Source of the DNA: Monocercomonoides exilis PA203
Lineage: Eukaryota > Protista > Preaxostyla
Reading direction: 5' to 3'
Assembly (NCBI GenBank): GCA_001643675.2
Contig: LSRY02000015.1
Coordinates: 310,001-374,000 of the forward strand
DNA: 64,000 nt
Each line of letters begins with the position of its first letter. Within the stretch, counting starts at the first letter, position 1. Below, one piece after another: positions 314 to 62,592 of the stretch. Below the pieces are notes generated by a model. It was not told where the DNA came from, made no database searches, and was given only the letters and a program-made list of their open reading frames with translations. A program made the translations under genes and the position numbers.

Positions 314-1990
314 TTATCCTGCTTGAAGAACGATTTGTGAATTCTTCCAATATGCAAAGCGTTTCATCATTCTTTTCAACAGAGGTGTCCAGATTTGATC
401 TCTCCAGGCAGGAATTAGAATAACTGCTCTTGCTCTCTTTCTCCAAATCTTCCTCAGACTCGGAAGAATAAGCGGAATGGGAAGATGAACAAAAGTCACT
501 TCGTATTTCCATCTTTCCACCAATACTTCCTTTGAGAAGGGACTTCCTGGTCCAAACCATATTTTTGCTTTGTTGTTTCCTTGACTTTCGAATTCATCCT
601 GCTCTATTTCGACATTCAACTGCTTCTGAAGCTCCTCCATTCCCTTCCGTGTGATCTGGTAATCTCCTGATCTTTCTTGTCTTGAAAAGAAATCTGCTGC
701 ACTGTTCAAAACGCCTGGAAGATGAATCGCTTTCACATTGATCCCCTTCTGGAGAATTGCTTGTCTGATCTTTCTTATGATGCAGATTAAGTTTCTTCTT
801 GCAGCCCAGCGGTTTATGTTGAAGACAATGCTTGAGTTGTCCGATCAAAGAAGCAAATTCTTCATCTTGAATTTCTTGATATAGGCTCGAAATGGTTGAG
901 ACAAATGAGAACTGTCAGTGTTTCCTTGAAATATGAACTTTTGGAAATGAATCTTCGATTGAGAGGCTGATGATAATGGAAACATGTTCAGTTGACTTCA
1001 AAGATGGCTCCACAGGCACGAGGAGCTGCATCTGTTGTTAATATCGCATCTGGAACTGAGTAAATTTCCAAATCTCTTTTTTCTTCCTTCTTCAAGCATG
1101 ATTCACAGTATGAGATTTGCTTGAAAACTCTTTAATTCATTGCGAATTCTCTATCCCATCCATTTTTTCGAACAGTCCTGTTGAGCAGAGCGTATAATCT
1201 GCTCATTTGAAGCCCTTCTTCTTTGCACACAAATCGCACTGCACTTATTGAACTGATGAATGAGGCATAGTCTCTTGTTTTCACTTTCGCTCCAATTTTT
1301 GCCTTTGTCATCCACCGCTTGCACTCCTTGTTCAATGCCTTCCTTCTGTTCCTTTCTAATGCCACTGTCATCTTTGTTGTTCTCCAAGTCCAACCCAAGA
1401 AGTTGAAGACTTGTCTCGGAGTTACACTGCTTTTTTCCCCACTGATAATAAGACCAAGCTCTGGAAAACCATTTTATCACTTTGTTTGTCACTTCTGCTA
1501 GACAAATAGGATCTTGATGTATAAGGATAACATCGTCCAAGAACGCCATGCAATTTTCATCCCATTGATTTCTGACACCTTGCAATTCCTTTCTCATCAG
1601 TCGTGTGAAGATTCGTGGAGCATTCTTGTTTCCTAAGGGAATTCCCGAAAAGCGAATGTTTCTTTGTGAAAGGAGAATGTGAGAAAAGGAACCAACAAAT
1701 CGTGAACTGAGACGAGGAAAAATTCTTTGGATAAATCCAACGTGGTGGAGAAATCGTTATTCTTGAGTAGTCTTTCGACTGTTCGGTGATCTTCCATTTT
1801 GAAATGGATGTTCTTCACAGCGGCATATAATGGATAGCAATCTAGTATTTGTCGGTATCTTCCATCTTTCTTTGGTTAGAAAAATATATTGCTCAGGCAA
1901 CGAACCTTCTTTCTGTCTATTTTTGATATGACGCCTATTGCTAAAGCTTCTTTTATCCAAGCGGAACAGGATAACTCCTCCTTCAAAACT
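314..1990 (-). pseudogene. DIRS pol (reverse transcriptase, RNase H, adenine-methyltransferase-like domain), disrupted
   Basis: ORF pieces 1633-1818, 1151-1597, 1132-1398 and 314-736 carry the RT [F]LDD motif, the RNase H C-terminal N..AD.FSR motif and the DIRS MT-type tail. Confidence 0.85.
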
Positions 1991-2138
1991 CAAAAAAAGC
2001 ACTTGTTCATTTGCACTTCTCTCATCAGTCTGTCCTTTGCCTGTTTTCCCTTCCAGACCTGGCATATTCCATCTGATATTGCATTTGTCACACCTAACTT
2101 CTTCTTCTCCGCGGAGAACAAACACGTTCTTCCACTCA

Positions 2139-2993
2139 TTATTGCTTCTTTCCCCAAGCTTTCCTGTGAAAGGTTTCTTTTCGAGGCCCACTGCTGATGA
2201 CCTGCACGCGAAAAAATCTTGTTCTCGTTATTCTTCTTTTTGGGTGTTGTTTCGGAGTTGAGCGTTTGGCTTCTTGAGAAGGCTTGATGATCTCGAGTTT
2301 GTCACAAGAAACAAGAGGATCTTCTGAACCGTCTTTCAGAACGCAGGCTGCTTTGAAACCATATTCAGCCTGAATGCGTGAATGTCTTGCCTCATGCAAC
2401 GCAGCAATGATCATAAGCGTAGCTTCAGTAAATCCATCAGGTTGCTAAGCTCCATCGTCTTGTAATAGGATCAGCGCTTTTTGGGCATGGAATACATATT
2501 GCTCCACTCTCCAACCGCTTGAGTCCAAAACATCCTTTATCCAACTTGAAGATCTTGAATGGGCATGCGTTTGCGATGGGATGAATGGGACAAATGATAA
2601 GGATTCATAAGCATTCCTGGTTTCCTGAACGTCTGCGCGATCAAGCTGAAAAATATTGAAAGGAACAGACACAACTTCCCCGAAGAGTTCCGTTGATAAA
2701 GTTGCAAGTTTGTTGGTTGACGGGATAACCTGTGACCCGCTGTGACTTTGGCTAGATTGAGTTTGTGAGAAGGGAGATGTTGAGCTGCTCGTGGAGTTGG
2801 ATTGAGATTGATCAAAACCACCCGTCGATCCGCTCGCAGAGAATATACTGCTTGGTTCAGACACAGATCCAAAATTAGTAGCTTCTATTTCCATTGATCT
2901 GTTGAACAACTGAGCCCTTAATATAGAGCTAACTCCAGAAATAAGGAGGTGTTGAAGTTCCTGATTGTTCTCGACAAAAAAATTGTGAAACAC
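2139..2993 (-). pseudogene. DIRS gag-like ORF1 with an in-frame stop at 2445
   Basis: ORFs 2445-2993 and 2139-2414 are in the same frame, upstream of RT, and end in a basic Arg-rich tail. Confidence 0.55.
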
Positions 2994-35753: not shown

Positions 35754-37497
35754 TATTTCTTTTGTCATTTATTTTTTTCAAAAATAGTGCTGAATAACGA
35801 TTGTGCAAGGAAAAAATTCATTAATTAAAAATTTATTGGAAAAACAGTTGCATGAATTGTGTCAAATGTGCATTTTGAACAATTGTTACCAGAATGAAAT
35901 AAAAAAACATTTTGTTTCACATATTTTTTTTCTTCTCATTTTTGTTCGCAACATCATTAAAAAGATAAGATTTAGTTGAAATTCCTAAATAATAATTCTT
36001 CAATAGTTTTCAAAACAAGCATCAAATTTTTGTTTATAAAAGGTGAATATGCATAAAAGGTTTAACAAAGATCATTGCTTTTTTGTTATTAAAAATTATG
36101 AACAACGATAGATGTTCGATAGAATTATTTATTCTGCTGATGAAGATATAACATTTTCCGGCGAGATATAATCTAGTTGACAGACGAGTTGAGCAAAAAT
36201 GCAAACAGTATATGAAAAGCTCACTATTTCTAATTATTTTAAAATTATTGTTACTTGGCGAAACTTCGTCTGTCATGTTCAGTTTTAAAAATGCGAAAAA
36301 TAAAAAAATAATGGGTGAGATCATTGATTTCATTTGCGTTTGTCCGTTTCTCCACATATGGGAAATTTTTTTTGAGATGATAATCTCGTTCAATGTTTGA
36401 TCTTTTTTTGAATCTTTGTGGGACAACTTTTTAAACGCATTGGAAATTAATTAATATGATAAAACATCATTTTCTGTAATATTTTTAATACGCAAATTTG
36501 GATTGATTCAATTTTCGAAAATAACCATAATTGTTCGTATGTAAAGCATTTTCTTTTTTGCTGAGTATTATTCGGTCGTGCAAACTTTTTGATGTTCGAA
36601 AAATATAAATTTTCAATCTTTAATAAGTTTCATTTTCTTAAAATATATAATTGTTCATGAACACACATGAATGGAAGCTTTTCATTCTTTTCAAATTTTT
36701 TTAAGATTTCTCGAGATAAGCAATATAGCAACGACAACAAGCATAGAAGATCGGAAGAAGAATTAGAAGTTTCCACAGGTGTTGCATGCTGGATATGGTT
36801 TTGTTTTTGATTTTTGATGATTTGAACTTTTTTGTATCGTATTATTTTCCTTCTTTTCATTTGTCTTTTATTTCATTCAGCATTTTACATACAATATATA
36901 TTTCAATCATTCTGTTTGAAACAAATAGCTTTGATCTTTGTAATGATTTAATTTTTGTTTTTTATTGAAAATTCATAAATTTATTTTTTTCCCGTGACAT
37001 TCAATGACTTAGTTAATGAAAGATTGAAAAATTTGAAGCCGAAAAGAATGAATGAATCTTTCGAACAATTTTAAGGGGATGTCGTTTTTTTTTAATTGAA
37101 GTTTAAAGGAAAAAAAAATATGAAGAAAAAAAAACAAGATTAAGGAAAAGATGAGAGAAGAAAGTATTAAATGAAAGATGCTTGAGGTTTAATAGTTGAA
37201 TTCACAAACATATGGAAATAGAATAGCTGCATAAAAAGAAGATAATAGGAAAGAAGTTGAAAGGAAAAAAGATAAAGAGAGAAGAAAAAGAAAGAAGAAT
37301 AAGAAAAGAGAGAAAAAAAAAGAAAAGAGAGAGAGAAAAAAATAAAGAGAGAAGGAAAAGAAGGTTGAAGCAAAAAGAAGAAGTGGAGAGAAGAAGAAGA
37401 AGAAGAAGAAGAAGAAAGAGGAAGAGCAGGATTTGTGGAAGAAGAGACATTAGCGAAGACATTTTGAGTTGAACACAAAGAAAATCTTCCATTTGTT

Positions 37498-38237: not shown

Positions 38238-39626
38238 TCTCTTTCTGCTCCTTCTCTCCTCCTTTCGTCCAGCATTTTTCCATACAAAAACTGCACATTT
38301 TCCGCAAACACACTTCTCACAACTGCTGCCTCGCCTTTCCCATCAGCCACAATTCTTTTCTTCCTCAACAAAAGCACTCTTTCCTTCGCATAGTACTCGA
38401 TATCTGCTTCTTCCTCATACACTCCACTCACTCCATACACACCCCATTTCCTCCTCATACGTTCCGCAATGTCTTTTTCTCCACTTCTCTCTTTCTCCTG
38501 ATGCACCCAGATCGCCCTCTCTCTATCTCTCTCCTCTCTCTTCTTCCCCTCCTTCTCTCTCGCCTCCTCTCATTCCTCCTTCCTCTCTCGCTGCCTTCAT
38601 CCGCTCTTTGTCCATTGCTGCCTTCGTGTTCTGCTTAAGCTTCGCCTGAAGAGACTGCAGATAGCTCGTCTTCAGTGTCTGTGCACCCGAACTGCCTCCA
38701 ACAGAGAGAAGAGGACCTGTTTAGAGAAGCTTCCGAGTGAAGAAAGACTCACCACGTAGTGTACCACCAAGGAAGAAGGAAGAGGAAGTTGAGAATGAGT
38801 TGGAAGAGGAAGTGGATAAATGTGCAGCAGGAGAGGAAGAAGAAGAAGAAGAAATAAGAGATGTCTTTGGGGATCTCAATGCAGATGCAGCTGCTTGTGA
38901 CGAGTTGATTGAGGCATTTGAGCTGTCGGCTGTTCCTGTGCTTGCATAGCTCTTCACACTTCCTGTGTAACTTGCACCTTTCTCTTCATTCTCTTCTGCT
39001 GCTTTCTCTTCGGCCTCTGCTCGTCTTTTCTCTTCTTCTTCTCTTTCTTCTTCTTCTTTTGCCTTCTCAATCATCTTCAAAAGCGCTGTTTCTTCCTTCT
39101 TGTCTCTGTATTCAACAGCCAAATGAACATTCTGGTAAATTTTTTTAAATTTATTTTGAAAATAAATAATTTGAAAATGTTAATCTGTGTTCTATTTTGT
39201 ATAGAGTTGTTTTCAAATTTTGTATAGTTGAATTATCTTTTCAAAATAGACAATTAACTTGTTGATGTTTGTGTTGATAATAATTCTCAAGGATATAAAC
39301 TTCTAAAATACAAAATTGTGAAAAGCAATTCGCTTTGTAAACAAGTTCAAAAATTCTTAATATTGGAAGATATAATTGCCCATCCAGTATTTTGTTTCAG
39401 ATTAAAGAGATAAATTTGACTTTCGCTCGATTTCATTTCTTATTGGAAAACTCATTCATTCTTTCTTTTTTGTGTGAGAAAAAATGGAAATCTTTTTATG
39501 CAGAAATTACATATGTCCAAATAATAGAAATGAAAATTTTCATAATGAAATTTTAATATCCCTTTGTTTGGTTTTCAACTTATTGTTATTTGTAATACTA
39601 ATTCAGATAAGATAATTTCAACAAAA

Positions 39627-42600
39627 ATGTTCACAACTCCTGAATCAACATTATCAACGAGAGCATGCAGTGCGTGGAATGAATTAAAAAGAATTGGTGG
39701 AGACAAAGTTGATGAGCTTTTATTATTTTTATTAACAAAGAACAAAGCAGCTGCTGATGTGGCAAATACAATTCGTCAACAATTAAATGGTAATTGTCAA
39801 TTGATTTCAAGTGAACTATTACCGATTTTTAACTGTGTTTTTTTGGTTTTTTTGTTTTCAATGTTTCACTTTGAATTATCAGAGTCTCTGAACACACTGA
39901 TGAATGATCTGGCTGTTGTTTACAATGCCTCACAAAAACACACACAGACAATGATTTTGCAAGCCGTTGCTCGTGATTATACACTGAAAAAACTTCAAAA
40001 TTTTGGCTTCGGTATATCAAGAGGACAGCACAGTTACGCTTAAAAAACTTTGCAAAAAAACAATGATCAAATTATACCTCCCCAAAAACCAACACTTCCA
40101 ATGTGCAAGCGTGGTTTGAATATATATTCTGTGTTTCTTTTATGAAGATAATAATTCAATTTTAAAAGGACTTGAAGAAGATGCTTGGCACAAAGGAAAC
40201 ACGTGGATGATTAATCATTCAACCGAAATGTTTGCATCGATGATTTGCAATCAAAAATCCTCAAAGCACTTAGAAGAAGAACAGTTTTTGGATGAATCTG
40301 CCTGGGATGATTTGATTTGCATATCATCAAATGACAAAAGACAGGAACAACCAAATAAAATAGGAGAAGAGTTATCAATAAAGTATCAGAGAATTCCTTC
40401 AAATGAAGCATCCGACTTTCAATCTCATTTTGACGATCGTTCAATATCAGCTGATTGCGAAACTGAACACGACTCTGCTGGATTTCGAAAAAAGAAAATT
40501 CATTTTTTGAGAGAAAATACAGAAACATCATCAAAAGTGATTCAAGGGAAAATATTCATGACAAACAGAGCAAATAATTCTCCCACATTTATTGCTGATT
40601 CAATTATTGAGAAAGCAAATATCGATTGCGAAAATAATAGAAACATTCCGTTTCAAACTCGTTCTGAAAAAAACTCATTGTCTCCACCAATAATTCCTCC
40701 TTATTGTCTAACTCACTTTATTGATTCTTTGGATCAGAGACAAGAAGCCAATGAATCATGTCTGACAACATTGATGAAAACAGCTGACAATTCAAACGCT
40801 AGCTTTCATGCAACATCAGAGACATGTCCTGTTAATGAATTTCATTCAAATATAAGGGTGAGCAAGAAATCCTGTTTAGGAAATTTAGCAATCCAAATGA
40901 ATTTGCCATCGATTGAGAAAAGAACAGATCAAAGTCACATGGAAAATCCTGATCGAGAAGATTTGACACATATTAATGAAGAAAGCGTGGAACTCAATTC
41001 TCAACCAAATAAAAAGGACAACAGCAAAAACCAATATGATTCAAAATGTCAAACAATAATTCGCATTCACAATCCACAAACAAAAAAGTTATCAGAAAGA
41101 AAGGGATTAATAAATTTAGGAAATACATGTTATTTATCATCGTTATTGCAAAGCTTTTCTTCTATCATATCTATAAATCCTTCAATGATCAAAGAACCGA
41201 ATTGCAAGACGTGTCTTTTAAAAATGTTGTTGGATGTTTGCTCTCAAATTCAAGGAAATTCAAATTATGTGAAGGAATGGAAGCCAGTCCTAATTGATGA
41301 ATGGGAGTCATTCTGTGGTTTCGGAAAAAGAAAACAACATAATGTTTCAGAATCATATGATTTTCTGATGAAACGGCTCATAAAAGACAATGCATTTCGT
41401 TAGGACAATATTAATATTACCACTTCCAACCACACAAAATGCAAATTTTGTGTATTTTCTTCAATTATTGTAAGCACTTCCAACAATATAATCATCAATT
41501 CAAATTCAGTGGAAAGAGGGCTGAAGAAATATTTATCGAAGGAACAGCTTTCAAAAAACAATTCAGTTTTATGTGGCAAATGCGGAAAACTTAATGAAGC
41601 GATAAAATGAACAGAGATTCGTGATTATCCACAATTATTAACAATTGAACACGAATGTTCATCCATGAAGCTATCAATTCCACCAAAACAATTATTCTTT
41701 TTTGTCAAAAATCATCACAGAACATTTGCAACTACTTCAATTGAATTTCCAAACTCGAAATCTTCAGCTCAACTTCAAACAAAAAGAAGTTATTCTTTAA
41801 TTGGACAAATTTTATTCAGGCAAACTGATCAATTTCATGGACATTATATTTCATTTGTCAGAGATTCTTGCATTGATAAAGAATCCTGGTTCATTTGCAA
41901 TGATGCTTTCGTTTCAAAAGTCAATGCTCAAAGTTGGAAACAAGCATGGGAAAATTTATTTAAAGAAGGATATATACCATCATTATCATTTTACATTGAA
42001 GATAACACAAATAATAGAAAAAATTCAATTCAAAAAGGAGGAGCACTTTCATATGTTCAACTATATGAAAAGCAAAGCAAAAAAACTGTTAACCAAAATG
42101 CACTTGAAGGAGCTATGTTAAGAGCTAACAATGACGAAGCATTTTCAATATCCTCATCAAACTTCAACAATAATTTCCCATTAAAACGGAATCAAAAATC
42201 AACTCGAATTTTTTCGCCAAATGAAAAAATACTTATTTTCAAGCCGAAATCAAGACTATGGAAAGAATTTCAGGAAGAGACAAACATTAAGTTATCACTT
42301 TCTTATTTCTACAAACTTACGACACAGTTTTATCGAGCAAAAAAGAGAACTGATGTATGTGAAATGTGTGAAAAACTTGATCATTTGGAAAGAAAATTGA
42401 GGTCTGTTCCTTTTTCAAAAAGAAGCAAATCGGATATGAAAAATTTTTCAATTTTGAAAATGCACAAAACATACGCGGAATGGCAACGAAAAAATTTTCA
42501 AGAAACAGTTCATGATTTGAAGGAGAATGAAGTGATATTGCTGTTTGATTTCAAAGAAAAATGGAAATTGCCGATCAGATTTCACCAGCTTCAGCAAGAA

Positions 42601-43491
42601 TATTATGATTACAAACAATTATCACATTTCACAGTGATTTCTATTCAAAAACAAAATGATCAGTATATAAAAAAAACTTTCAACTTTCTATCAGAATGCC
42701 TATCAAATGATTTTCGATTTGTAATAGAGTGTTAGCAATCGGTTTTGAAAAGATCATTCTACAAAAACTCTTCGACTTTCAAATTTTTCTGTGATTCCGG
42801 TCCTCATAACCGGAATCGCTTTGTGCTTCACTTTCTATTGCGAAGCAAATCTTCTTTTCTGAAAGGGAAAAAATGTGAAGTGAATTATTTCACAGAACAT
42901 CACGGAAAGAATCTTTGTGATGGTGAATTCGGTGTTCTGGTCAACTCGGTTAATAATTTCCTTTCTGATGAGAATGTTTTATCATTGCAGGATTTAATTT
43001 CTTTTTTCAAAAAGCATGTTGAATCTCATACAGTTTCACAAGTCCCTATTTCACAAAGGCAAAACCAATCAACTTCAACAAATATTTCTTCATCAGAGAA
43101 TTCTCAACTTGAATTATCAGTGAACGACAGATATTTTGAAGAATATATTTCATCACAACAGAAAGTTTGGCCTTCTTTTGTCATTCCACACATGAAAGAT
43201 TTCTTGTTTTTTGAAAGCGAGAATAATCATGTATTCGGATCTGCAGTCGGCTATTCTCCACAGCGCTGTTTAATTGATCTTCAAGGAACAATAAAGAATG
43301 AAACAGTTTTGAATGAAAGAAAAACATGTTCAAAGCAGCAAAACTCACAAAATGTCATCAATGTTCCACAATCTTCAATTGAAATGATTTGCAGACGTAA
43401 CAGACTTTTGCGCAATTCATTAACATTTGATTTCTGTAATTGTCCCATATGGGTGATTTTTTTTGATATCATAAAAAATTCCGACGTTTGA
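39627..43491 (+). pseudogene. USP-deubiquitinase / Sola-like DDD transposase fusion, copy 1 (four in-frame stops)
   Basis: Exons 39627-39789, 39883-40110 and 40169-43491. USP Cys box GLINLGNTCYLSSLLQ, His box GHYISFV and WFICND. Transposase LFDFKEKW, FFCDSGPHNRN and EHHGKNLCDGEFG. Stops at 40041, 41401, 41608 and 42733 align with K, K, W and L of copy 2. Confidence 0.85.
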
Positions 43492-45519
43492 TCATAAAAA
43501 ATTATCATTAAGGGTGAGGTTGAAAAGATTAATTTTATTTGTAATTGCATGAAATTAAAGTTTAATTAATAATAATTATTATTTATATGTTGATTTTAAC
43601 TTGATTTTTATAGCTTTTATTACAAAATTTGAAAAAAAACATTTAAAAATTTTTGAAAATATCGACAATTCAATAAACACAACAAAACATTTTTTTAATC
43701 GTTAATATAACATGAAAACAACAATAACAATATATTATCAATCATTTTTTTATATAAAAACTTGTTTAATGAGTTATAACAAAGAAATTTTTATAATTGA
43801 ATTGAAGATCTTAGAACTTTAGTTGAAAACAATCAATTTTTAAAAGCACACATAAAAAAATATAATAGTTAAACTAGATATTCATCAGATATACAAATAT
43901 TTGCTGTTTATTTTTCTATAAAAGCAAATAATACTTTGAAGAAGTTATTAAAATAAATTGATTAAAGTTTTTTTAAAAAATTACAAAAAAATATTTCAAA
44001 AAATGAAAAGTAATACGAGAATTTCTGCTTTTTATTCTTAAAAAGCTCGCAACTTTTATGATCTCATCTTTTTCATCCTCTACTCTTCTTTTTGGCATTG
44101 CCTCAGTTGCTCGGCGAACATTCCACTCAACTATTTTTCTGAATATGCTTCTCTGTGTAATTTCTTTTTCTTCGCAAATCACTTTGAAAGCTGCACAGAT
44201 ATATCACTAAGATTCATAGAATTCTTCAACAGCCATGCTTGGCTCAGTTTCAACGTTGATTTGAGGATGCATGGGTTCTTTTTGAAAGTGAAGAGGATGT
44301 TTTTTGGGCTGATAACAATCAGATCTTGGAGGCTGATGCTGTGCAAGTTCGAAACACTGGGCGAAGTGGAGAGCATAATGTTTTCACAGATCAAGTGCAC
44401 CGGGTGTGTGATTGTGGGTGGGGAGAAGGGGAGCGGAGACGGTAGATGTGTAAAGATCGCAGCGAGGCCAGAGGAGGTTAGCGAGGCCAGGCACAGACAC
44501 ATGGATTGAGCAGCTGGGTGTTCTTGGGGGAGGTTGATGCATCCAGGCAGTTGACCCCTCGAGCACGTGGTGTTGGCGGTGGTAGATGCAGTCCATTTCA
44601 ACTGAAACATGCCCAGCGCCGACCTCCTCCTTTCATTTTCAACCTCCACTTCGCCTCCCACTCCTCCCACCGACCCCAACCTCGATGTCGACCTCCTCCC
44701 CTTCATCACTTTTTTCCGCTCCTACTAGATAATCTTCAACCAGGACACTGGCTTTTCTGCTCGCCAGGTCAGCTTCCTGCTTGACCCCTGCATCTCCCTT
44801 TCCACTGTTGTACTCTGCATCTGCCGCTCAATAGAAAACTCCCTCTGGATCAGCCCACTCTTCCCTCTTCTCCCTCCTCGACGGATAACTAGCTGTGTCC
44901 TCCTTCCTCTTTTCCGCGGCTGACCAGCTCGTCCGCCTCATCAAACCCCTCAATTGTTCTTGACGAGAAATCCTTCGCCTCTCCAACATAACTGTCCATT
45001 CCCTCCCCCCTCACCTGCCCTGCTCATCATGCTCTCTCCACTTCCTCCCTCTTTCCATCCCATGCCAACCTCTCCGCCCTCAGTGCTGCCTCGCCTGTGC
45101 TCCTATTCGACGATGACATCAGCAACTTTATTGAGTATCTCATCACCACAAATCTCTTCATCGGAGGTTTCAGCGTTGTAATTCTCATCTCACTGTGTTG
45201 AATCACTCAATAAGCTCCTTCACTATGATGCGTTCCATCTTCACTACCATCTCGCTCGACAAGCTCTGTTGGAGTGTGCATACCGACAACTTCCAGCTCA
45301 CCAGCAAAAGCCATTCCATTTGTATATTTTCCCACACCACCAACTGCAACCTCGTCTACTCCAACTCCAGTGCACTCAATATCGCCTCGTTCAAATGAGG
45401 AGGTGGCGGCATCCTTCCAGGCACCTCTTGGTGGCTCCTCAACTGTTGATTCACTCGGCGCTGAATTCACAATCATCTCTCTCCTCTGCCTTTCGTATCG
45501 ATGCTTTCAGGCTTTCGTG

Positions 45520-49500: not shown

Positions 49501-49561
49501 CATTGTCTTCATCTCCTTCTATTCCTTCTCCCTCTTCCACTTTCTCTCTTCCATCAACTGA

Positions 49562-49927
49562 CTCGCAAGCATCGTCTCGCTCATCTCCATTGCCCTCCTC
49601 TTCGCGTTCTTCTCTCCCAGCTTTCGGTTCAGCCCCCGTCTTGTCTCCCGCATCTTCACTGCCCCTTCCCTCCGCTCCCGCTCCTTCTCGTCCTCCCGCA
49701 GCATCACTGACACCTTGTACCCTTCCCCCACATTCATCTTCTTCTGCACCGTCGTCAGGCACGAAAGCTCCGATTCCTTAAAGAACTCCCCCCGCGACTT
49801 CAGAAGCAGCGTCGGCGACATCCCTTCTGCTTCCCCAGCTGCACACCGCCTCCGCAGCTCCTGCTTCCCCGACAATGCCCGTTCTGCCTCCCACAACTCA
49901 AACAGCCCAATCGACTCCTGCACTTTG
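49562..49927 (-). repeat. 366-bp GC-rich coding-like block; inverted copy of 61181-61546
   Basis: Both translate identically (VQESIGLFELWEAERALSGKQ...MSETMLA); the boundaries are sharp. Confidence 0.95.
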
Positions 49928-50780
49928 CACTTCGACTGTCAACTCTCGGCACGCTATGTTTCAGCTTATCACCAACCAAATGGACGCACACCAACGCCGC
50001 ACCATCTGTTTTCTGCTCGCAATTCTGAGACTAGCATATTCAACAGACTCGTCTGCTTCGTCAAAATAAGCCATGTGAGAATGTTTTCTGTATCTGAATC
50101 AGAGAAAAAATAAAATAAAATTATGAAATGGCCTTAAAATTATAATTATTAAGTTCAAAATTAATTTTAAAAAAAAATGAAGATTTAATTAGATAGATTG
50201 AACAAAATAACCTTTCTAATTTTCTATTCTGCCCCTTTCTATTCTCATTCCTTTATCTCTCCTCCTTCTTTAGTTCTCATTCGTTTAATTTCTCTGCAGT
50301 TCTGTTTCTGCAACAAATATCTCCCTTTCGCTGCATAAGACATGAGCATTCTTTTGCCTTTCTTGCTCTTCCGCTGCTGTCTCCAGCCGACAAACAATTG
50401 AATTCCCCGTCTCATTGCGTTTGTAACTTAGCGCTGTGAAAGCACTTTCACATTAAAAATATGCCACTGCTTCAATAATAGCTGCAACTCACCAAGAAAA
50501 TGAATGAATGAATGATGTTTCATTCGTCTTGTTGGTGCACGAGCAGCAGAGTGAACTTAATCAGTGCCAGAGAATATGTTCGGTTGAAAGCAGAATCTGA
50601 TGAAATCTTTGATTTTTTAAAAACCATTTCTCATAAAAGCCGCAACGCAAGATAAATACAGGCCAACAGTATAAGAATCAGATATTACTGACAAACAAAT
50701 ATAAAATAAAAAGATTTTGATTATATTTTGACATATTTTTTAAAAAAAGTGGAAAATAAAAAATATATTTGAGAAATAAT

Positions 50781-51257
50781 AATATTACTTCAAACATTAA
50801 AAAATAGAAAGTTTAAGCAAGCTGGTTAAAAGTTGGAAAAGCAAGTGGTTTTGAAAAAATGAAAGAAACAAAACTCCAGCTTTAATCAGAACCATATCTT
50901 TTTGAATTCTTGAGTGTTAATCGTAAAAAAACAAATATCAGAAAAAAAAATTGAAATGTACATTTTGTTGTTGTGCGTGCAATAAGAGTTAGCAAACGAT
51001 TTTTTTCAGATTTTAAAACGCCGTATTCGAAGAACAAAAGCTCTGTTTCTTCGTCCAATCAATGAAAATGACTGAAATGACAGAATCCTCAGGGGTCTTT
51101 TTTTTGCATAAAATGATTGCTTTCACAATTTTAACTTCATCTATTGCCAAAAAACTGCATTCTTCTACCTGCAATTTTCGCCCTTTACAGCTTATTTTTT
51201 TGATCTTTTTTTCGCAAAAAAAATAAAATAAAGGGTTGGATCCTTTTTTTCATTCAA
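50781..51257 (-). repeat. Left inverted-repeat arm (pairs with 58804-59259 and 56144-56341)
   Basis: The reverse complement of 50844-51236 reads the same as 58804-59196, with a degenerate extension to 50781/59259; 51060-51257 pairs with 56144-56341. Confidence 0.95.
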
Positions 51258-51919
51258 ATCTGTCGTTAATTACATGTCATATTTATTTATTTTTCATGCA
51301 TTGCTGAATGATTTAATGAATGATTGTTTCAAAAATGTGTTTATTTTATGTTATTGAGTTTTGCTGAAAATCATAGAAAAATGAGTGAAATGAAAGAAAA
51401 TACGTTTAAAAATAACAATTGTTCACCAATCAAAATGACATAAAAAAACAAAAAGTACTTCATGATATTAATCATTAGAAAAATAGAAAACAATCAGAAT
51501 ATTTTTGATCAGATTCAATAACTTTCAAAAAAACATAATTCTATCACTTAATCATAAAACTATCTCCAAATGTCAACTAAATATCAACAATTTTGAACAA
51601 TGAAAAATATAAGAAGAAATAGCACTATTTCAACAAATTCATGGAATCAAAGACAATTCCTAACAAAAAAGAATACTTATATAAAAAGTTCAAAAACTAA
51701 CTTGTCTATTTTCCCTTTGTTTTCCATCCACTCTCCACTTTCTGATATTTCTCTCACTTTGACTCTAAAAGATCAAATCCAACAAAGAAAAAAGACAGAC
51801 ACAATGATAAAACAACATTTCACACTCTCGTCAACTCTCCCTTCCAAAAACCTCACACAAAGATCAATGAATTCCCTCACAACTCTCTCTATTAATGAAT
51901 CTCGATATATACAAATATA

Positions 51920-52130: not shown

Positions 52131-55100
52131 TTAAAAAGGGACACCATTAATACAATTTTGAGATTCATTAATAGAAGAAGAGTCAAGAAGAAGCTCAAAT
52201 CTCCTTGAAAGAAGATCTTGAGAAGATTGAGAAAGAAGAGAAGAGTTAGATGATGTGATATCAGAGTGAAATGACTTTCTTGATCTTTGGACTTTTTCTT
52301 TCATTGTTGAAGATTCGAGGGCAACCAGAGAGCGTTGAGGAAGATATCCAACAGCTGAAGCACAGACAAATGAGCCTTTGCGCTCAAAATACAAATAGTC
52401 TTTCATGTGAGGTATTGAAAGTGATGGCCATGAGATTTGTTGAGATGGTACATATTCTTCAAAGTACCTCTCATGTTCAAAGCTATTGACAGATGTTGAA
52501 GATGGTGAAGAGTTTGATGATGATGTTGGGAAAATGTTTGATTGTGAAGTTGAAGAAGCTGATGTCGAAGTGTTCATATTGTTTTCGAAGAAGTTGATCA
52601 AATCATGAAGTGTGGTGATGTGTTCTGTCGAAAGATTGTTGTCGATTGCATTCACTAACGCACCAAATTCACTGTCACAGATATTTTTTCCATGGTGCTC
52701 AGCAAAGAAATTGAGTTGAGTGTTTTTCTTTTTTAGAAGTTTTGATTGTTTTGAGAGGATGAAGTGAAGAAGGAAGCGATTTCGGTTGTGTGGACCCGAA
52801 TCGCAGAAGAACTTAAAGGTGTGAGTGTCTGAGAAGAAGTGTCTTTTGATCACAGATTCCAGACACTCAATAACAAATCTGTGATCATTTGAGAGGCAGT
52901 CGGAGAAGAAGTTGAAAGTTCGTTTTATTTGTTGATTATTAATTTTTTGAAGAGAGATGATTGTGAATTGAGAAACCTGTTGATAGTTGAAGAATTCTTG
53001 TTGAAGTTGATTTTTTCGGATAGGGAGTTTCCATTTTTCTTTAAAGTCGAAGACGAAGACTGCTTCTCCCTCTTTCAAATTATCAACAGTTGATTGATAA
53101 TGTTTTCGTTGCATTTCTGCAACAAGACGATGTTGTCGAAGAAGTTTGAGTGTATGAAATTCGGCAGAAGAAAGTCCATTTTTATTTTGTGAAGACTTCA
53201 GTTTGTTTTCGAGATAGTTGAGTTTCTCGCACATTCCACAAAGATCTGTGCGTCTTTTCGCTTTGGAAAAGTTGGTAGTGAGTTTGTAGAAATGTGACAG
53301 AGAAACTTTGATGTTTGTTTCTTCTGTAAACTCACTCCATAATTTTGTTTTGGGCTTGAAGATTAATCTCTTTTCATTGGGAGAAAAGATGCCCGTTTTC
53401 TTTCTTTTATCTTTCAAAGCTTCCAATCCATAACTTGTTGAAATTGACGAAGAAAGTGGAAGAATGAAAGTTGAACGATGAGGTGGAGTGATGAATGGAG
53501 ACGATGATGATGATGTAGTCGTTGTTGTTGTGTTATTTGAAGTGTTTAAATTTGAAGTTTCTGAAGAAGATGATGAACCACCAAATTGAAGAGTTGACAG
53601 TGTTGGCTTTGTTTTTTCTTTTGAGTAGAAAGAAAGGGAAGGAGTGTAACCCTGGGAGTAAAGATCTTTCCATGAAGAACTCCATTTACCACTATCGAAT
53701 TCAGTCACTTCAGCATCATTGCAAATACTCCAAAAACTGTTGATACCACTCTTCCTTTTCACCACAGCTATATAATGTCCATTTCTTTGATCCAGACGTT
53801 TGTATAGTATTTGTCCAGAAAGATGATAAATAATCGTTTCCTTATTGCTCTCTTGAAGATGTTGAATGTTTTCTGTTGAAAACCCTTTGCAGAAAGTGCG
53901 CTGGTTAACACGATCTGTTTCAATCAGAAGCGTTCTCGAAGGAGCAGAACTAGTAGCATCAGTGCATTCATGACAGAGGGCTAGCACCTCTGGAAATGCA
54001 GCCATTTCCTCCCATCGAGCAGCACAGCATTTCTCTTCACATTCATCGCAATAAACATTGTTCTTTCCGTTCAATATCTCAGTAGAAAAGAGAGAAGATA
54101 GACCTTTATGAGGAGAAGATGAATTAATAACTACATTGTTGACAATTTCATTGAAACGTGATGAAATTTTTTGGCATTTTTGGCATTTGAAATGAGTGAT
54201 TAAAACAGGATTGAAGGTGTCCTTATTTATCAACTCATCTTTTTGAAGAAGTTGGTGAAGATTGTCAAATGCCTCAGCCACGTTTTGCTGCTGTCTGCTT
54301 CCATAGTTGCAGAAATCTTCCCATTTGTCAATAAGAGATGGGACCCATGAACGCACTGCCGTTCCATCTTTAGCCAGTTGTTGACAAACACTTATAACAC
54401 GCGAAGATGTGTTCTTCAAAGATGTTTGTTTTTTGAATAAAGATGGTTTTTGAATAGTTATTGAAGAGAAACATTGAAGAAGAGAAGCCAAATAGCATGT
54501 GTTGCCTAAGTTTGGCAATCCTTTTGTTATTTGTGATGTTTTGCTTGAAGAGTTTAATGAATTTGAAGAAGATTGAGAATGAGAAGAATTTTTTGTTGAA
54601 TTTTCTTTGGCATTCTTTTTTGAAATATTTTTTGAAGAATTATTTTGTGGAGATATTTCTTTATTTGAAGATTGAATGCTTTGTTGTTGAACTGTTGAAG
54701 TGTCATTCTCTTTAGAAAATGAAGAAAAGAGAGTTTGAAATGCTTGAGGTGGAATTAATGTGGGTGAAGTGGCATAATCAACTAATTGCTCACTCACAAA
54801 CACATTATCATTATGAAATGATGAAGAATTTATTTTTTCTTTCAATTTTTTTGTAATTGAAATTTGTGAAGAAGAAGTTTTTGATTTGAATATTTTGTGA
54901 ATTGGTATTGGAGATGGAGAAGAGTGACGTTTGTGATTTGAATTTTTATTTTGATTTTTTGTTGAACCCCTTTCTCTCCTTATTGGAGTACTGATAGGGG
55001 CATCAACGGCTTGAGATGGAGAAGAATTTGTTGAAGAAGAATTTTCATGTGAAATGGTTTCAGATTTTTTGTTGAGTTGAGATGATGTTGAAGAAGAAGA

Positions 55101-55838
55101 AGATTGTTTTTTATTTGAAGAAGAATTTTCCGTAATTATTTCTTCATCCCAAGCTGCTTCGTCAATATATCTGGCGTAATCTGGCTCAGCTCGCTGCTTT
55201 TTCTTTGCTGACTGAAGAGAAGTTGAGGCTTCAGTCGAATGGGCTAACATCCAGTTGTTGCCCTTTTCCCAGTCCTGTTCATTTAATCCTTAGAAAACAA
55301 TGAAAATAAATAAAAAAAAATTTTTGATAAAAACAAACAACTTTTGCAAGACGGAATGTGAGGTTTCTGAGGCGGAATGATAAATCCTTGGTTTTTTTTT
55401 AGCGTTTGCTTCGCGTAAATAAATTTTCCCTCTGTGACATCATATCCATAGTCCTGTAAATCGGACAATGATGTGTTGCGGGACAGCGCTTGTAGCATTG
55501 TTGTCTGAGTGTGCAACGGAGCGTTGTTGTACACCACAGACAGGTCTTCCAGCAGCTTCATGTGATATTCTGTTTTAAAAAAAAATAATTAATCAACAAA
55601 TCAAAAAGAAAAAAATCACAGAAAGGAAAAAATAATATTTTCTACACAATACAAAAAAATAAAAAACCAAACCATTCAAAGACTTCAGTAAATCATTTAT
55701 TACTGAAGATGATTGCCTGTAAGTGTAAAACAAATAGGCAAGCAACGAATCCACGTCATTTCCGCCTATTCGCTTTATTTCTTGCCATAGAACATTGCAT
55801 CGAGAATTTAATGTCGATTCGCGTTTAGAAAACGACAT
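52131..55838 (-). CDS. Intact USP-deubiquitinase / Sola2-like DDD transposase fusion, copy 2 (~1180 aa, 3 exons)
   Basis: Exons 55838-55673, 55569-55342 and 55288-52131 splice in frame (GT-AG). USP: GLPNLGNTCYLASLLQ, QQNVAE, CQKC...CDEC, GHYIAVV, CND. Transposase: KRLIF...LWSEF...VSLSHFYKL, CGMC, VFDFKEK, CDSGPHNRN, EHHGKNICDSEFG. Confidence 0.9.
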
Positions 55839-56143: not shown

Positions 56144-56341
56144 TTGAATGAAAAAAAAAATCCAACCCTTTATTTTATTTTTTTTGCGAAAAAAAGATCA
56201 AAAAAATAAGCTGTAAAGGGCGAAAATTGCAGGTAGAAGAATGCAGTTTTTTGGCAATAGATGAAGTTAAAATTGTGAAAGCAATCATTTTATGCAAAAA
56301 AAAGACCCCTGAGGATTCTGTCATTTCAGTCATTTTCATTG
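56144..56341 (+). repeat. Internal ~200-bp copy of the repeat arm, located between the divergent genes
   Basis: Inverted relative to 51060-51257 and direct relative to 58804-58979. Confidence 0.95.
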
Positions 56342-56491
56342 TTTCATTGAAAAATTCTCGTTTTTGATTATCACATTTTCTCGATAAATAATAAGATTTT
56401 GAACTTTATTTTAAAAACATAGATCATAATTAATTTTAAGATTAATAGTTTTATTTTATTTTATTTTAAAAATTATATCAATGAAAATCTG

Positions 56492-58389
56492 ATGTGTCCC
56501 ATTCATCGGAATTCTTCAATGTCTTGTCAGAAGTTGTCTTACTCTCGATCTTCTCGGATTCATTCAAGCTTGCGGAAAAGCAGTATCATGAATGATGTTG
56601 ATTCATTATCAAACTTTTTTGGACAAATGTCGATTGATCATGCGAATAAAGTGCTCTTTGAGTTTTTTTGCAAATCTTCAAACGGAAATATTTTTCTGAA
56701 TAATCTAATGAAAAATTTTGGATGTTTGTTTCTTGTTTTATTTTTTGTTTCTTTGTTTTTGTTTTATTTAACATTTAATTTCTTTATTATTATTTTTTTT
56801 TTTATATTTTTTATATTCATTTAAAAATAAGCACCATTACACAAAATCGTACAGAAGATGAAGCTCCCTTTCAATGAATCGAACCCGCATATCCAAGAAA
56901 AAATGCTGCTGTGCCTGACTGAATGGTTTTCACAACAAGAACTTGAGCAGGATTTTTCTTACAGAATCAAATGCATTGGAGATAATATGATGGAGTGTGA
57001 AAAAGAAAAATCGACAAATTTGACATTACGGAAGCCGTCTTCAACTTCATGTTGCAGTGTCATTTCTTCAGACGAAGATGAGGCTGCTGATCAAATGTAT
57101 GAAGAAGAAGAAAGTGATGAGGAAGAGTCAGAGAGTGATGAAGATTTTATGAAAAGAAAAGAAAAGAAATGCAATGATATTAAAGGAGGAAAGATGGAAA
57201 TAGAACTCGAGGTTTGTTTTTTTTTATTTTTTTTGAACTTGCCTGATTCATTTTGACAGGCAAATCAATAATTTTTTGATAAATTTTTTTGTGTGTTGTT
57301 CAGAAGCGACAGACACCAATTGAAGCTTTAGGAAATCCTTTTTCCATTTTATCAACAGTTCCTCAGATTGGAAGTTTTTTTCAATTTCCTCCTTCTTTGC
57401 TATTCCCGACTCGACCTTGTGCAAAAGAATCTCGCTCATATGTTCAAGTGTTGTGTGATTGTGGAAGGGAATTGTTCAATTTTGGAGCGTCGTGTGCCTT
57501 GGCATCAGTTTGCCAGTGTTTGGCTTCATTTGGGGTGACTTGCGACGTCAAAAGGAAGCGTGGAGGGGCATTTATTTTTGGAAGACTGTTCAGAGCAATC
57601 CGTTCATACAGCGTGACCAGTAAAATCTGGGGAACGAAATCATTCAAATCATTCATCGAAAGAAATGGTGGGAGCATTACTGATCCAATGGGAATTACAA
57701 CAGCTTATAATTCTGTTTTGAACAGTGCAGCAACGGAGGGGTGCAATATCAAGAAGGATTTCACTGTGAAGCAGTCATCATTCAAATTGTGTGGGAGTTG
57801 CAATCATGTTCGTGTTCACAATCAGTGCCCTTCACTGTATGTGGCAATTCATCATCCATCAATAATTGAGGGGCTGAATCAATATTTAACAGCGACGGAG
57901 CAAACGGTTGATAAAGAATTTTGTATTGATTCTTACTGTGGGAGGAGAACAGTTTTTTGGCAATGGAATCAAATAGACAGATTTCCCAAGATTCTTTCCA
58001 TCTATCACAGTTTTAAAGATCATTGTCCATTAATTCCGCCTCCAAAAACTATAACTTTCAACGGAAATGGATCGACTCCAAAATCAATGGTGGTGAAACC
58101 TGGCTCAGCGAAACAACAGACATATGATTCGTTCAACTTTCCTCAGACAGAGTTTTCCTTCATTGGTTATATCCTTCATTCTATGAAGCCTTTGCCTATT
58201 GGACATTTTATTGCAGTTGTCGTTGATGGAATAGATGAATCAACTGGGGAGCTAAGACTGTTGGAGTGCAACGATGGACTAGTCTCACGTGTGAATTCGA
58301 AGTTCTTCGATGCATATTGGAAAGCGATGGCAAATGAAGGATGGAGCGGAGCAATGTGCTTTTGCAGAATAAACCAAACGATTGAATAA
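56492..58389 (+). CDS. Stand-alone USP-like cysteine protease sharing the N-terminal domain of the fusion transposase (3 exons, ~565 aa)
   Basis: Exons 56492-56723, 56832-57211 and 57304-58389 splice in frame. Cys box LFNFGASCALASVCQCL, CGSC...CIDSYC, FPKILSIYH, GHFIAVV and ECNDG. FNESNPHIQEKMLLCL...ELEQDFSY resembles YNNAPLHTQTTMLQAL...DLQDYGY of copy 2. Confidence 0.75.
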
Positions 58390-58803
58390 TTTGTTATTTA
58401 TTTATTTTTATTTTTTTTTTTTATTTGAAGTTCTCTTTTTTATTTGTTTCTCTCTTTTTTAACATTTCAGTTAATTTTCATTTTTTTTTATTTTTGTTTC
58501 CTTTTCAATGAAGTTCTCAAAAAACCAAATTTTTTTGACTCTAATTTTTTTTCATTTGATATTATTCTTCTGAAATAAAAAATTGTTTGAAATCTTAGAA
58601 AATTGAAGGAAAAAAATAAAAAATAAACAAAATACAAGAAACTCAAAAAAACAGACTTTTGATTAAAGTAAACATTTTCATTATAAACATCTGATAACTC
58701 TTCACAAATCAAATTATTAACAATAACATTGCATAATATATTAAAAAAATAACAAATCATCAAGTATGAATATTCATTAATTTCAATGAATTTGAAGATC
58801 ATG

Positions 58804-59259
58804 CCCTTTATTTTATTTTTTTTGCGAAAAAAAGATCAAAAAAATAAGCTGTAAAGGGCGAAAATTGCAGGTAGAAGAATGCAGTTTTTTGGCAATAGAT
58901 GAAGTTAAAATTGTGAAAGCAATCATTTTATGCAAAAAAAAGACCCCTGAGGATTCTGTCATTTCAGTCATTTTCATTGATTGGACGAAGAAACAGAGCT
59001 TTTGTTCTTCGAATACGGCGTTTTAAAATCTGAAAAAAATCGTTTGCTAACTCTTATTGCACGCACAACAACAAAATGTACATTTCAATTTTTTTTTCTG
59101 ATATTTGTTTTTTTACGATTAACACTCAAGAATTCAAAAAGATATGGTTCTGATTAAAGCTGGAGTTTTGTTTCTTTCATTTTTTCAAAACCACTTTCTT
59201 TTCGAACTTTTTACAGGTTTGTTTTAAACTTTCTATTTTGTAATATTTATGATAATATT
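58804..59259 (+). repeat. Right inverted-repeat arm (pairs with 50781-51236)
   Basis: Reads as the reverse complement of the left arm over ~390 bp, then becomes degenerate. Confidence 0.95.
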
Positions 59260-61169
59260 ACAGTTTTTTCATTATGTTGGAAAACTGCTCAGTTTGCTTC
59301 CTTTTCAAAGAAAAGGAACCTTGCTTATTGATCATTTGACAAATCTTCTCGTTGGCGAGCATCATAATGAGAAAGGAGCAGATTATTATATAGTCATTGG
59401 GAATCAAATAAAGTTACGGAAGATACATGATATTTGGTGCAAGAGATGAAAACAAATTTGGCTGATGTTTCATTGAATGAAGACAAAAGAGGATGGAATT
59501 CTGTGAAGGACAAAATCTGCACAATATTATATAGCATTTTGGAATGTTAGGCAGGGAGAGCAGTTTGGGGTATTTTTTTTGGCAAGGAAAGTGGCTGGCA
59601 ATATCAAGGGAAGGATATTTATCACAAAAAAGGCAACAATTCATTGGAAAAAAGAAGAACCCTAAAATATAGGTTATATTTAAAAGGTTTTCCTGTTGCT
59701 CAGACTGGGAAGACAGACATGGAAAGCGACGAAATTCTATTTCTGATTCCGCAATTGCTTCAAAAGAGTGGAGAACAGCCAACAACGAGACATTCAATTA
59801 TTGAATACTTTTCGGACATCAAACAATTTTTTGACCAGCTGCATCTGAATTCTGCTCTGAAACAATTTTTTAATTTTTGCGAACCACAAGCTTGACATTG
59901 ATAATTTGGTGTTTCTGTTTGCCAAACATTCATTTGACCATCAAATGCATCTTCTCTTGCAATTCCTCCTCCTCTTCTTTTTCCTGGATATCTGTGTCTT
60001 CTCCGTTGCGTGCCAATCTCTTCAAGGGTAATCTCGAACTGAACAACCTGGCGAATGCGAATTCTCAACTCTTTTCAATTGCGGCAGGTGCATGTAATCA
60101 GAGCACATTCAGCATGCTTCTCATCAACTATCACTCTTCTTTCACCATTCCTTATCTCTGCCTTCTCACATTTTTCCCTTCGCTGATTGCAAGATCCTCC
60201 TCTTTGTGTTCTTCCAGCTTGCCTCGATGCAGCTATTTCCTCTTCATTTTGTGAATGTGTTCACAAGCAGAGTTTTGTTGCAGCTCATTGGGAAGAGTGA
60301 GAAGTGTGAATGAGAGAGAGGGAGGGAGGGAAAAGAATAAAGGAAGGAAGTTGATCAGGGAGGTGGTTTTTGGATTTGATAATTAGGATGCCACCGTAGA
60401 AGAAGAGGAAGAGAAGAAAGAAAATTGAATCGATGATGATTAATTTGTTTCAATTCAAAACACTGGGACTGAAGCATTCAAAGGCATGAATTAATATATT
60501 TACAATTTTTTTTTTATTATTTTCTTTTGATTTTTGTGTGAAATAATGTGTATCCTCTTTTTTTAGTCTTGATGGAAGCCCGACGAATAGAAACATTTGT
60601 GCACACTTCTGCCTCTTCTTCGACTTCTTCGTTTGTGTTCTCTACAGGGATAGTCATTGGGACAGACGACATAGCACAGCTAAAGGCACTACCACAGGAA
60701 GATATACCGACTGATGTTGGGCTGCAGATGTGTGGAACATGGGAGCGGAGTATGTGCGCGTCCCTGGTTGTGAAGCATGTGTTCCAGCCGCTGTCGATGC
60801 AACTGAATGCGCCAGCAGGAATAATGATATCTTCGTTTGTTGCAGTGGTGCTGATGGTGCGCGTATGTGGAGAGGCGCTGCACCCTGCAGCACCTGGTCA
60901 ATTCCATTACGCAACGATCTTTTGAGCGCATGGGGTTGCAGAGTATCTGGAGGCAGTGACGCACATAATATTGGCTGATCTATTTTTTGGTGAAGGTGAT
61001 GTTGATGCCAAATGTTGTGCTGTCATGTGATCTGTCTGTGATGGCGGCGTATTTCGTGGTGGGGAAGGGGGGAATCACCTGAAAGAGAAGCTGATGAAGT
61101 TCAGTGGTATCTGTCCATTGCGATTCCACTACTGAAAAGAGCATATTGTGGAGATGATGATAATGGAGA

Positions 61170-62592
61170 TTGCGGAAGTTCAAAGTGCAGGAGTCGATTG
61201 GGCTGTTTGAGTTGTGGGAGGCAGAACGGGCATTGTCGGGGAAGCAGGAGCTGCGGAGGCGGTGTGCAGCTGGGGAAGCAGAAGGGATGTCGCCGACGCT
61301 GCTTCTGAAGTCGCGGGGGGAGTTCTTTAAGGAATCGGAGCTTTCGTGCCTGACGACGGTGCAGAAGAAGATGAATGTGGGGGAAGGGTACAAGGTGTCA
61401 GTGATGCTGCGGGAGGACGAGAAGGAGCGGGAGCGGAGGGAAGGGGCAGTGAAGATGCGGGAGACAAGACGGGGGCTGAACCGAAAGCTGGGAGAGAAGA
61501 ACGCGAAGAGGAGGGCAATGGAGATGAGCGAGACGATGCTTGCGAGGCAGAGGAGAGAAGAAGCGAGGATAAAGTTCTATTTGGAGCAGAGGCAGAAAGG
61601 GCGAGTGTGGAGGGGAGATGGGTGGGGTGTGGAAGAGCATGCGAGAAGACGATCAGAAGCAGAAGCAGACGACGGAAGAGAGGAAGGGGAAGAGGGGAGA
61701 AGAAGGAGAAGAAGGAGAAAGGAGAGAAGGCAGCGAGAATTGCGGCAGGATGGAGGATGAGAGAGGAGAATGAAAGGAGGCAGAGGGAAGAACAAAGATT
61801 GGAAGAGGAAGGAGAGATGAGGAGTTTGAGGAGGATTTTGAGGGAGAGACGCCGAGAGGGAGAAGGTTTGGAAAAGGGGTGGAGAAAAGGGCGTCTGCAT
61901 CTGCAACTGCGAAAAATCAAAAGGAGATGATATTTCTGTATTCGCAGCCATTCAATGTTTTCATCGTTAATCCGCACCGAATGGAGGAGAGGATGGTGCT
62001 GAGGGATTCTGTACAGTCAGGAGAAGAGGAGGAGACGTTGCAAGTGGATGACGATGAACATTGCCACAGCCTCCGCCAACAACACTACTACCACCGCCAT
62101 CATATTTTGAGATACGAGCGGACTAGCGATAGCGAAGATGCAAATGAGAGTGGAAATGAAGATGGAGAAGACAGAAGTGGAGATGAAAAAGAAAGTGGAA
62201 CGGGAGAGAGCATGGAGCATGAAGAGCAGGGTGGAGCGAGGCAGAGCAGAATGACGAAAGAAGCGGAAAAGGAAACACAGCAAAAAGACCAAGACAATGT
62301 CCAGGACGAGGGGCACGGGGATGAAGGGGAGAAGGAGCGAGAGAAATTTGAGGGGGAAGCTGAAGCACAAAATGGATCCACAGGAGACGGATTAGGAGAG
62401 CCGCTGCAGGCAACGTCTCCGAGCTCACCAGAACTGGATGAGCTTGAGCCATATCGCTTCCATCCGCGGCCAGTGCGGCACAAAGCAAGCGAAGAGAAGG
62501 GGCAGCGTCTTTCATTTATCACGACATTGGAGCCATCGGCAGCCACAGTATCTCATTTTCTGTTTGGCTCGCTGACATCGTGGACAAGTTGA
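61170..62592 (+). pseudogene. Fragmented charged/low-complexity hypothetical gene
   Basis: ORF pieces 61170-61760 and 61879-62592 with E/R-rich composition; no domain recognised. Confidence 0.3.
61181..61546 (+). repeat. 366-bp block; inverted copy of 49562-49927
   Basis: Reverse-complement match with identical translation. Confidence 0.95.

Follow-up and report, generated by a model that had tools for sequence, protein, structure and literature searches.

This locus raises two questions: why a transposase of the gut protist Monocercomonoides exilis should be joined to a predicted USP (peptidase C19) domain, and what has become of the copy of this fusion (copy B) described here. The window, by which we mean the whole stretch of 64,000 nucleotides that was analysed, also contains a paralogue, copy A. 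The original prediction, made from the sequence alone, had regarded copy B as a recently inactivated member of an old family of USP-transposase fusions, and had explained its closeness to copy A by local hopping or by a target preference. In our assessment, copy B is probably a copy, inactivated by four stops, of a second multicopy and likely Sola2-type subfamily, and the predicted USP most likely aids transposition by removing ubiquitin.

The features of the locus are collected in Table 1. In copy B an N-terminal domain is followed by a USP (C19) domain and then by a DDD transposase. The N-terminal domain of exon 1 matched no known family and no Atlas feature. The catalytic codons of the USP domain are Cys 41128-30, His 41842-44 and Asp 41902-04, and the transposase motifs are DFKE (Asp 42547), CDSGPH (Asp 42793) and HHGKNLCD (Asp 42919); copy B thus retains the catalytic motifs of both domains, with Cys, His and Asp in the USP and three Asp in the transposase, as had been claimed. 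The predicted convergent arrangement at about 9 kb was also borne out, with copy A on the minus strand, copy B on the plus strand and about 8.6 kb between their stops. The two copies have the same domain order and two phase-1 introns aligned in register, those of copy A (103 and 53 nt) lying at the same aligned codons as those of copy B. The shared intron positions therefore stand, while the reading of the first junction as L-N-G needs correction: it is L-N-E after splicing, and the G comes from unspliced read-through. Both intron junctions of copy B recur in P0006 (MONOS_15350), a public gene model that represents a different copy of subfamily B. The reading frame is intact in copy A and broken in copy B.

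Table 1 Coordinates of copy B, copy A, paralogue C and associated repeats. Positions are those of the window.
Feature	Position	Strand	Evidence or remark
Copy B, USP-transposase gene	39627-43491	+	coordinate splicing, 1,238-codon frame
Copy B exon 1, N-terminal domain	39627..39789	+	same junction in P0006
Copy B intron 1, 93 nt, GT..AG, phase 1	39790..39882	+	aligned position common to copy A and paralogue C
Copy B exon 2, nonsense TAA 40041-40043	39883..40113	+	contigs X1 39962-40113 and X3 39950-40113, zero differences
Copy B intron 2, 55 nt, GT..AG, phase 1	40114..40168	+	aligned position common to copy A
Copy B exon 3: linker, USP domain, transposase, C-terminal domain	40169..43491	+	
Copy B USP/C19 domain, two CxxC pairs	41095..42000	+	Pfam UCH; PDB USP12/USP46 E 2e-9
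Copy B Sola2-like DDD transposase, CxxC, broken by TAG 42733	42199..43029	+	motifs by eye; Atlas
Terminal part of another repeat, of very high copy number, starting ATAT/GGG	43447..43515	+	depth spike; unrelated left flanks in many contigs at 43446-43450
Copy A, intact 1,183-aa USP-transposase, other subfamily	52131..55838	-	public model MONOS_13149, P0016
Copy A exons	55838-55673, 55569-55342, 55288-52131	-	
Copy A USP domain, hypervariable among A copies	53220-54140	-	also P0001-P0013, P0020
Paralogue C, intact 565 aa, N-terminal domain and USP, without transposase	56492..58389	+	shares intron 1
Inverted repeat left arm, 480 bp, encloses A and C	50780..51259	.	95% identity to 58780-59260
Inverted repeat right arm	58780..59260	.	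pairs with 50780-51259
Partial third copy of 480-bp repeat, between genes A and C	56144-56344		

In order to check the stops, we used contigs at 97% likeness or more from four DNA runs of one sample and one study, which is possibly the window's own source. The four in-frame stops are TAA 40041, TAG 41401, TGA 41608 and TAG 42733, the middle two of which break the USP domain. Every one of them was bridged by zero-difference contigs with 31 bases or more on either side, covering 39962-40113 (X1), 41169-41448 (X1; also X2 and X4), 41573-41669 (X2) and 42693-42787 (X2), which confirms the four nonsense changes. Siblings of copy B read sense at two of the four positions, with Lys at 40041 in P0006 and Leu at 42733 in an X4 contig (4 differences in 309 bases), and one sibling variant has a separate stop at 42421. 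The independent stop in a sibling and the Leu at 42733 indicate that B copies decay independently. M. exilis is reported to be monoploid in the available part of PMC6759080; we therefore took divergent contigs as paralogues and rejected the possibility that they are alleles. An alternative genetic code for copy B was rejected as well, all three stop types being present. The reported absence of frameshifts holds for the interior of the gene and may fail at its end: the V-P-Y with which proteins of the family terminate is found out of frame shortly ahead of the stop of copy B, so that a frameshift in the last codons is possible.

Roughly 5-6% of random substitutions in the frame of copy B give stops, and four stops then correspond to a decay of 1.8-2.2% substitution (0.6-5% as Poisson range). 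The near siblings differ from copy B by 1.3-3%, which matches this value and agrees with the recent death that had been proposed. Among the sibling differences listed 11 of 25 were synonymous compared to 20-26% expected (p 0.01-0.04); for coding sites among the 40 rows listed, with 917 more beyond these, the count was 11 of 31 (p 0.04-0.22). This weakly suggests that the siblings diverged in part at a time when their lineage was still active.

Pfam named no transposase family. In the Atlas, DUF7869 clusters, which we take to be linked to Sola, ranked first for the transposase with a score of 0.96. A low-confidence model of copy A (pLDDT 58) has the strand and helix order of RNase H, and its best Foldseek matches were integrase, RNase HI and Hermes, with E values of 1.6e-3 or worse. 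The Sola2 motifs and the three conserved Asp (DFxE, xDG/xDS and HGKxxxD) were all found by eye in A, B and P0005, an assignment made by visual motif comparison with Additional file 10 of PMC3627910. As far as the available part of that paper goes, the closest parallel is with the amoebozoan Sola2 elements DFa-2 (Dictyostelium fasciculatum) and PPa-1 (Polysphondylium pallidum), whose motif order (FY..R-T-D-x-C-x-x-C, H..F/Y...RK, DFKE, W/F-x-D-x-x-x-H and HGK-x-x-x-D, with three aligned Asp) is the same as in A and B and which, like copy B, lack the long Cys-rich insert of animal Sola2. Unlike copy B, which has a USP domain and two introns ahead of its transposase, these elements carry Fanzor. 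We describe copy B as Sola2-like; on purely protein grounds, membership in Sola2 is probable.

In the available part of PMC3627910, Sola2 elements have short inverted repeats and AT-rich 4-bp target duplications. For copy B, unlike DFa-2 and PPa-1, no 12-21-bp inverted repeat with an AT-rich 4-bp duplication was found: the scan for a terminal inverted repeat with a 4-bp duplication around the gene returned 0 candidates (0-5 in 12 control scans), and the inverted-repeat search stayed at chance level, with a score of 78 against a shuffle maximum of 90. At its 3' end copy B meets the high-copy repeat of Table 1, whose depth is about 1000 times that of single contigs and whose other end lies outside the window. 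This repeat is likely inserted in the last codons of copy B, and the insertion could have removed the right terminus of the element. We also weighed the GGG-starting end at 43451 as a candidate for the right terminus of copy B itself and rejected it for the variable flanks on its left; a look-alike at 36355 did not exceed chance, its score being reached at 6 of 300 random places. On the other side, the sibling homology of copy B continues to 39087, into the upstream neighbour gene. Other B-type copies also have this divergently oriented neighbour (38300-39400, minus strand), with about 87% identity. It has in-frame stops and may belong to the element or to a duplicated segment.

Both subfamilies are dispersed. 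For subfamily A there are 21 public gene models, some of them being fragments of one copy, on at least 14 contigs as told apart by length. Subfamily B is multicopy, with B-type contigs at 85-99% identity and with P0006 on another contig (91% identity to copy B over 328 residues; P0006 ends at residue 338); the more distant B copies are contigs with a difference of 10-14% throughout, from the upstream region through the linker and USP to the transposase. Every B copy that was observed is broken, namely copy B, P0006 and the sibling with its own stop. Local hopping finds no support as the cause of the clustering, because A and B are too diverged (38-63% protein identity and saturated dS) for either to be parent or local offspring of the other, and subfamily A is spread over many contigs. 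With regard to a target preference, the chance of finding an A copy within 10 kb of a B copy, a rough and post hoc estimate from 21 copies in 82 Mb, is 0.5% if there is a single B copy and 2.5% if there are five; the adjacency would also follow from repeat-rich regions. In protein word-based searches the homologues were named M. exilis proteins and one relative outside the species, P0005, which has 35-42% identity to the transposase, no Pfam match, and a contig of 2.5 kb that is too short to judge a USP. Searches of metagenome, viral and prokaryote contigs for related loci found none.

The USP domain was recognised by Pfam UCH in copy B (E 7.7e-15, 55.6 bits) and in copy A (E 1.7e-14, 54.5 bits), with a cut-off of 23.9; paralogue C scored 20.3 bits, under the cut-off. 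The boxes NLGNTC, GHY and CND align to USP12. The Cys box, the His box, Asn-Asp and the finger CxxC pairs of the copy B USP are common with cellular USP12, USP46 and USP1 (PDB). Unlike these proteins, the element's USP is fused into a transposase, has about 25% identity or less to them, and evolves fast at its surface. Predicted structures were of low confidence (pLDDT 58 and 56; USP TM about 0.23), and the best matches of the domain, in sequence and in fold, were all USPs.

With regard to age, the synonymous difference between A and B is saturated, with a pS of 0.71-0.83 in each of eight regions. At the protein level the DDE core has 63% identity, the N-terminal domain 45%, the USP 38% and the linker 26%, and dN from a pairwise maximum-likelihood codon model is 0.27 in the transposase, 0.49 in the N-terminus, 0.67 in the USP and 1.05 in the linker. 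Per-domain pairwise dN/dS gave an omega below 0.15 for the USP, not near 1, in a test that is inflated because of the protein-guided alignment and the saturated dS and in which the linker control also rejects omega=1. The conserved catalytic residues are the firmer evidence of selection. Despite saturation copy B keeps Cys452, His690, Asn709-Asp710 and both CxxC pairs, which align with USP12, and all three paralogues (A, B and C) retain Cys, His and Asn-Asp. The catalytic residues, domain order and introns that A and B have in common in spite of saturated synonymous sites uphold the proposal of an old fusion under selection.

The intact copy A lies head-to-head with paralogue C, both inside one pair of long inverted repeats. 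P0016 is identical to copy A across all parts that the public model covers. In this model an in-frame 624-nt stretch with the USP Cys box (about 54370-54990, minus strand) is called an intron, and in the model of P0002 the Cys box is spliced out from the same donor; this is probably a prediction artefact, the alternative being a protease-dead isoform. Paralogue C has an N-terminal domain that matches the A/B type (17.6 bits; 0 of 1000 shuffles as high), its intron 1 at the same codon and in the same phase, and a divergent USP with Cys, His and Asp kept. Because paralogue C shares the N-terminus, intron 1 and the USP, the N-terminal-plus-USP unit is at least as old as the A/B split. The 480-bp inverted repeats are near identical over their inner 400 bp and differ over the outer 60 bp; we looked for a clear target duplication around them and found none. 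Further out, the A/C unit is flanked on both sides by coding-like host sequence that is duplicated in inverted orientation over 387 bp (49547-49933 and 61175-61561; 98%). Elsewhere in the window, 314-2227 (minus strand) contains decayed-looking reverse transcriptase/RNase H fragments in several frames, presumably DIRS-like.

The copies of subfamily A are much less alike in the USP than in the transposase. For copy A and ten public A-type models, compared as proteins, mean pairwise identity was 63% (50-89%) in the His half of the USP, 68% in the Ser-rich linker and 93% in the start of the transposase. Tree lengths for the six copies covering both were 0.91 in the USP half, 0.82 in the linker and 0.16 in the transposase, and the contrast between USP and transposase was seen in 10/10 A copies (Fisher p 0.02 to 2e-16). 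His636, Asn655 and Asp656 were invariant in all 11 sequences covering these sites. Minor states were common to several A copies in 83 of 166 cases, and 92 of 325 informative site pairs were incompatible. Invariant columns numbered 20 of 65 in the linker and 17 of 74 in the USP half. Diversifying selection or shuffling fits this variability; a relaxed surface would give it equally.

Other readings of these data concern either the fate of copy B or the role of its USP. That copy B is still live, its four stops being recoded codons or errors of the assembly, is extremely improbable: no internal frameshift accompanies them, as such a reading would have it, but zero-difference contigs bridge all four, three stop types occur, and the opposite residues of copy A differ (K, K, W and L). 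We give little credence to the possibility that B, instead of being a recently mobile subfamily, is a family of host genes that descends from the transposon and was once domesticated or was duplicated segmentally. Inverted repeats and a target duplication were not found around B, host-like genes flank it about 0.5 kb away, and paralogous contigs reach into the upstream neighbour as a segmental duplication would give; against this, all the observed B copies are broken, and the right terminus could have been lost when a repeat inserted at the 3' end.

As for the USP, it is improbable that the domain is a passenger, or a self-processing protease that cuts the polyprotein, with no action on ubiquitin. 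The low identity to cellular USPs, the flanking of the domain by two low-complexity linkers, and a Q-box of QxNVxE in place of the canonical QxD would suit such a role. However, the triad is kept in three paralogues across saturated dS, which argues against a passenger; paralogue C retains its USP with no transposase to release, which argues against self-processing; and the top sequence and fold matches are all USPs. Another possibility, which we hold only tentatively and consider unlikely, is that the USP serves in counter-defence and is subject to diversifying selection, its surface varying so as to act on host substrates or to evade a host defence based on ubiquitin, while the transposase is fixed. 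The differences in identity and tree length between USP half and transposase, their recurrence in every A copy compared, and the common minor states and incompatible site pairs are in its favour, but these numbers come from protein data, and a nearly neutral USP surface beside a strongly constrained transposase fits them too. Moreover, the linker has no smaller a share of invariant columns than the USP half, and distant subfamily B contigs differ uniformly over linker, USP and transposase. An ubiquitin arms race, with a near-invariant transposase, a diversified or shuffled active USP and a USP-only paralogue in the same inverted repeats, seems to us doubtful; if true, a cut-and-paste transposon would here be equipped with a varied set of deubiquitinases directed at a host defence based on ubiquitin.

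We favour the reading of copy B as a dead member of a subfamily that a USP had helped to transpose. One spliced protein would carry the predicted USP ahead of the transposase as a tethered deubiquitinase, captured once, before the split of subfamilies A and B. Copies of B would then have spread and decayed independently, copy B drifting by about 2% since its insertion. Judging from USP catalysis and from published hypotheses, the USP most likely strips ubiquitin either from the transposase, which would thereby escape degradation by the proteasome, or from proteins present where the element inserts; a de-ubiquitination role of transposon proteases is hypothesised in the available parts of PMC2836005 and PMC9741609. 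Copy B itself gives no full-length protein. Among the observations against this reading are the pace of change of the USP His half in subfamily A, which equals that of the Ser-rich linker and would be expected under relaxed constraint too, and the public models of copy A and P0002, in which the Cys box is spliced out.

Fusions of a transposase with a USP are already in print for other superfamilies. In the parts of these papers that were available, the metamonad Trichomonas vaginalis has transposase_11 and Peptidase C19 in one protein, XP_001314237.1, as here, in a different transposase family (pfam01609) and as a single protein noted in passing (PMC2836005). HLE2 Helitron-like elements with UCH share the same Pfam family (PF00443) and are rolling-circle, not DDE, elements (PMC11417382); Helitron VTD deubiquitinases are likewise transposon-borne and rolling-circle, not DDE, and of another protease class (PMC9741609). 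Ginger1 and Mutator transposases with OTU or Ulp1 combine, as here, cut-and-paste transposition with an ubiquitin/SUMO protease, but of a different class, and that of Ginger1 is C-terminal whereas the USP here is N-terminal to the catalytic core (PMC2836005). Our literature search found no report of a Sola2-USP fusion; older Sola supplements or Repbase entries may already list Sola with C19. The available parts of the M. exilis genome papers PMC8767320 and PMC6759080, and of PMC5751038, PMC4455052 and bioRxiv 10.1101/2021.09.26.461848, contain no Sola-USP report.

On its own, the dead copy B is ordinary. Ubiquitin/SUMO proteases recur in several unrelated transposon superfamilies. This locus adds a Sola2-like case, in which three paralogues show that the USP was kept over long divergence. 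It also offers an intact copy for assay and about 20 copies with a USP far more variable than the transposase, and so makes testable the question of whether ubiquitin restrains transposases.
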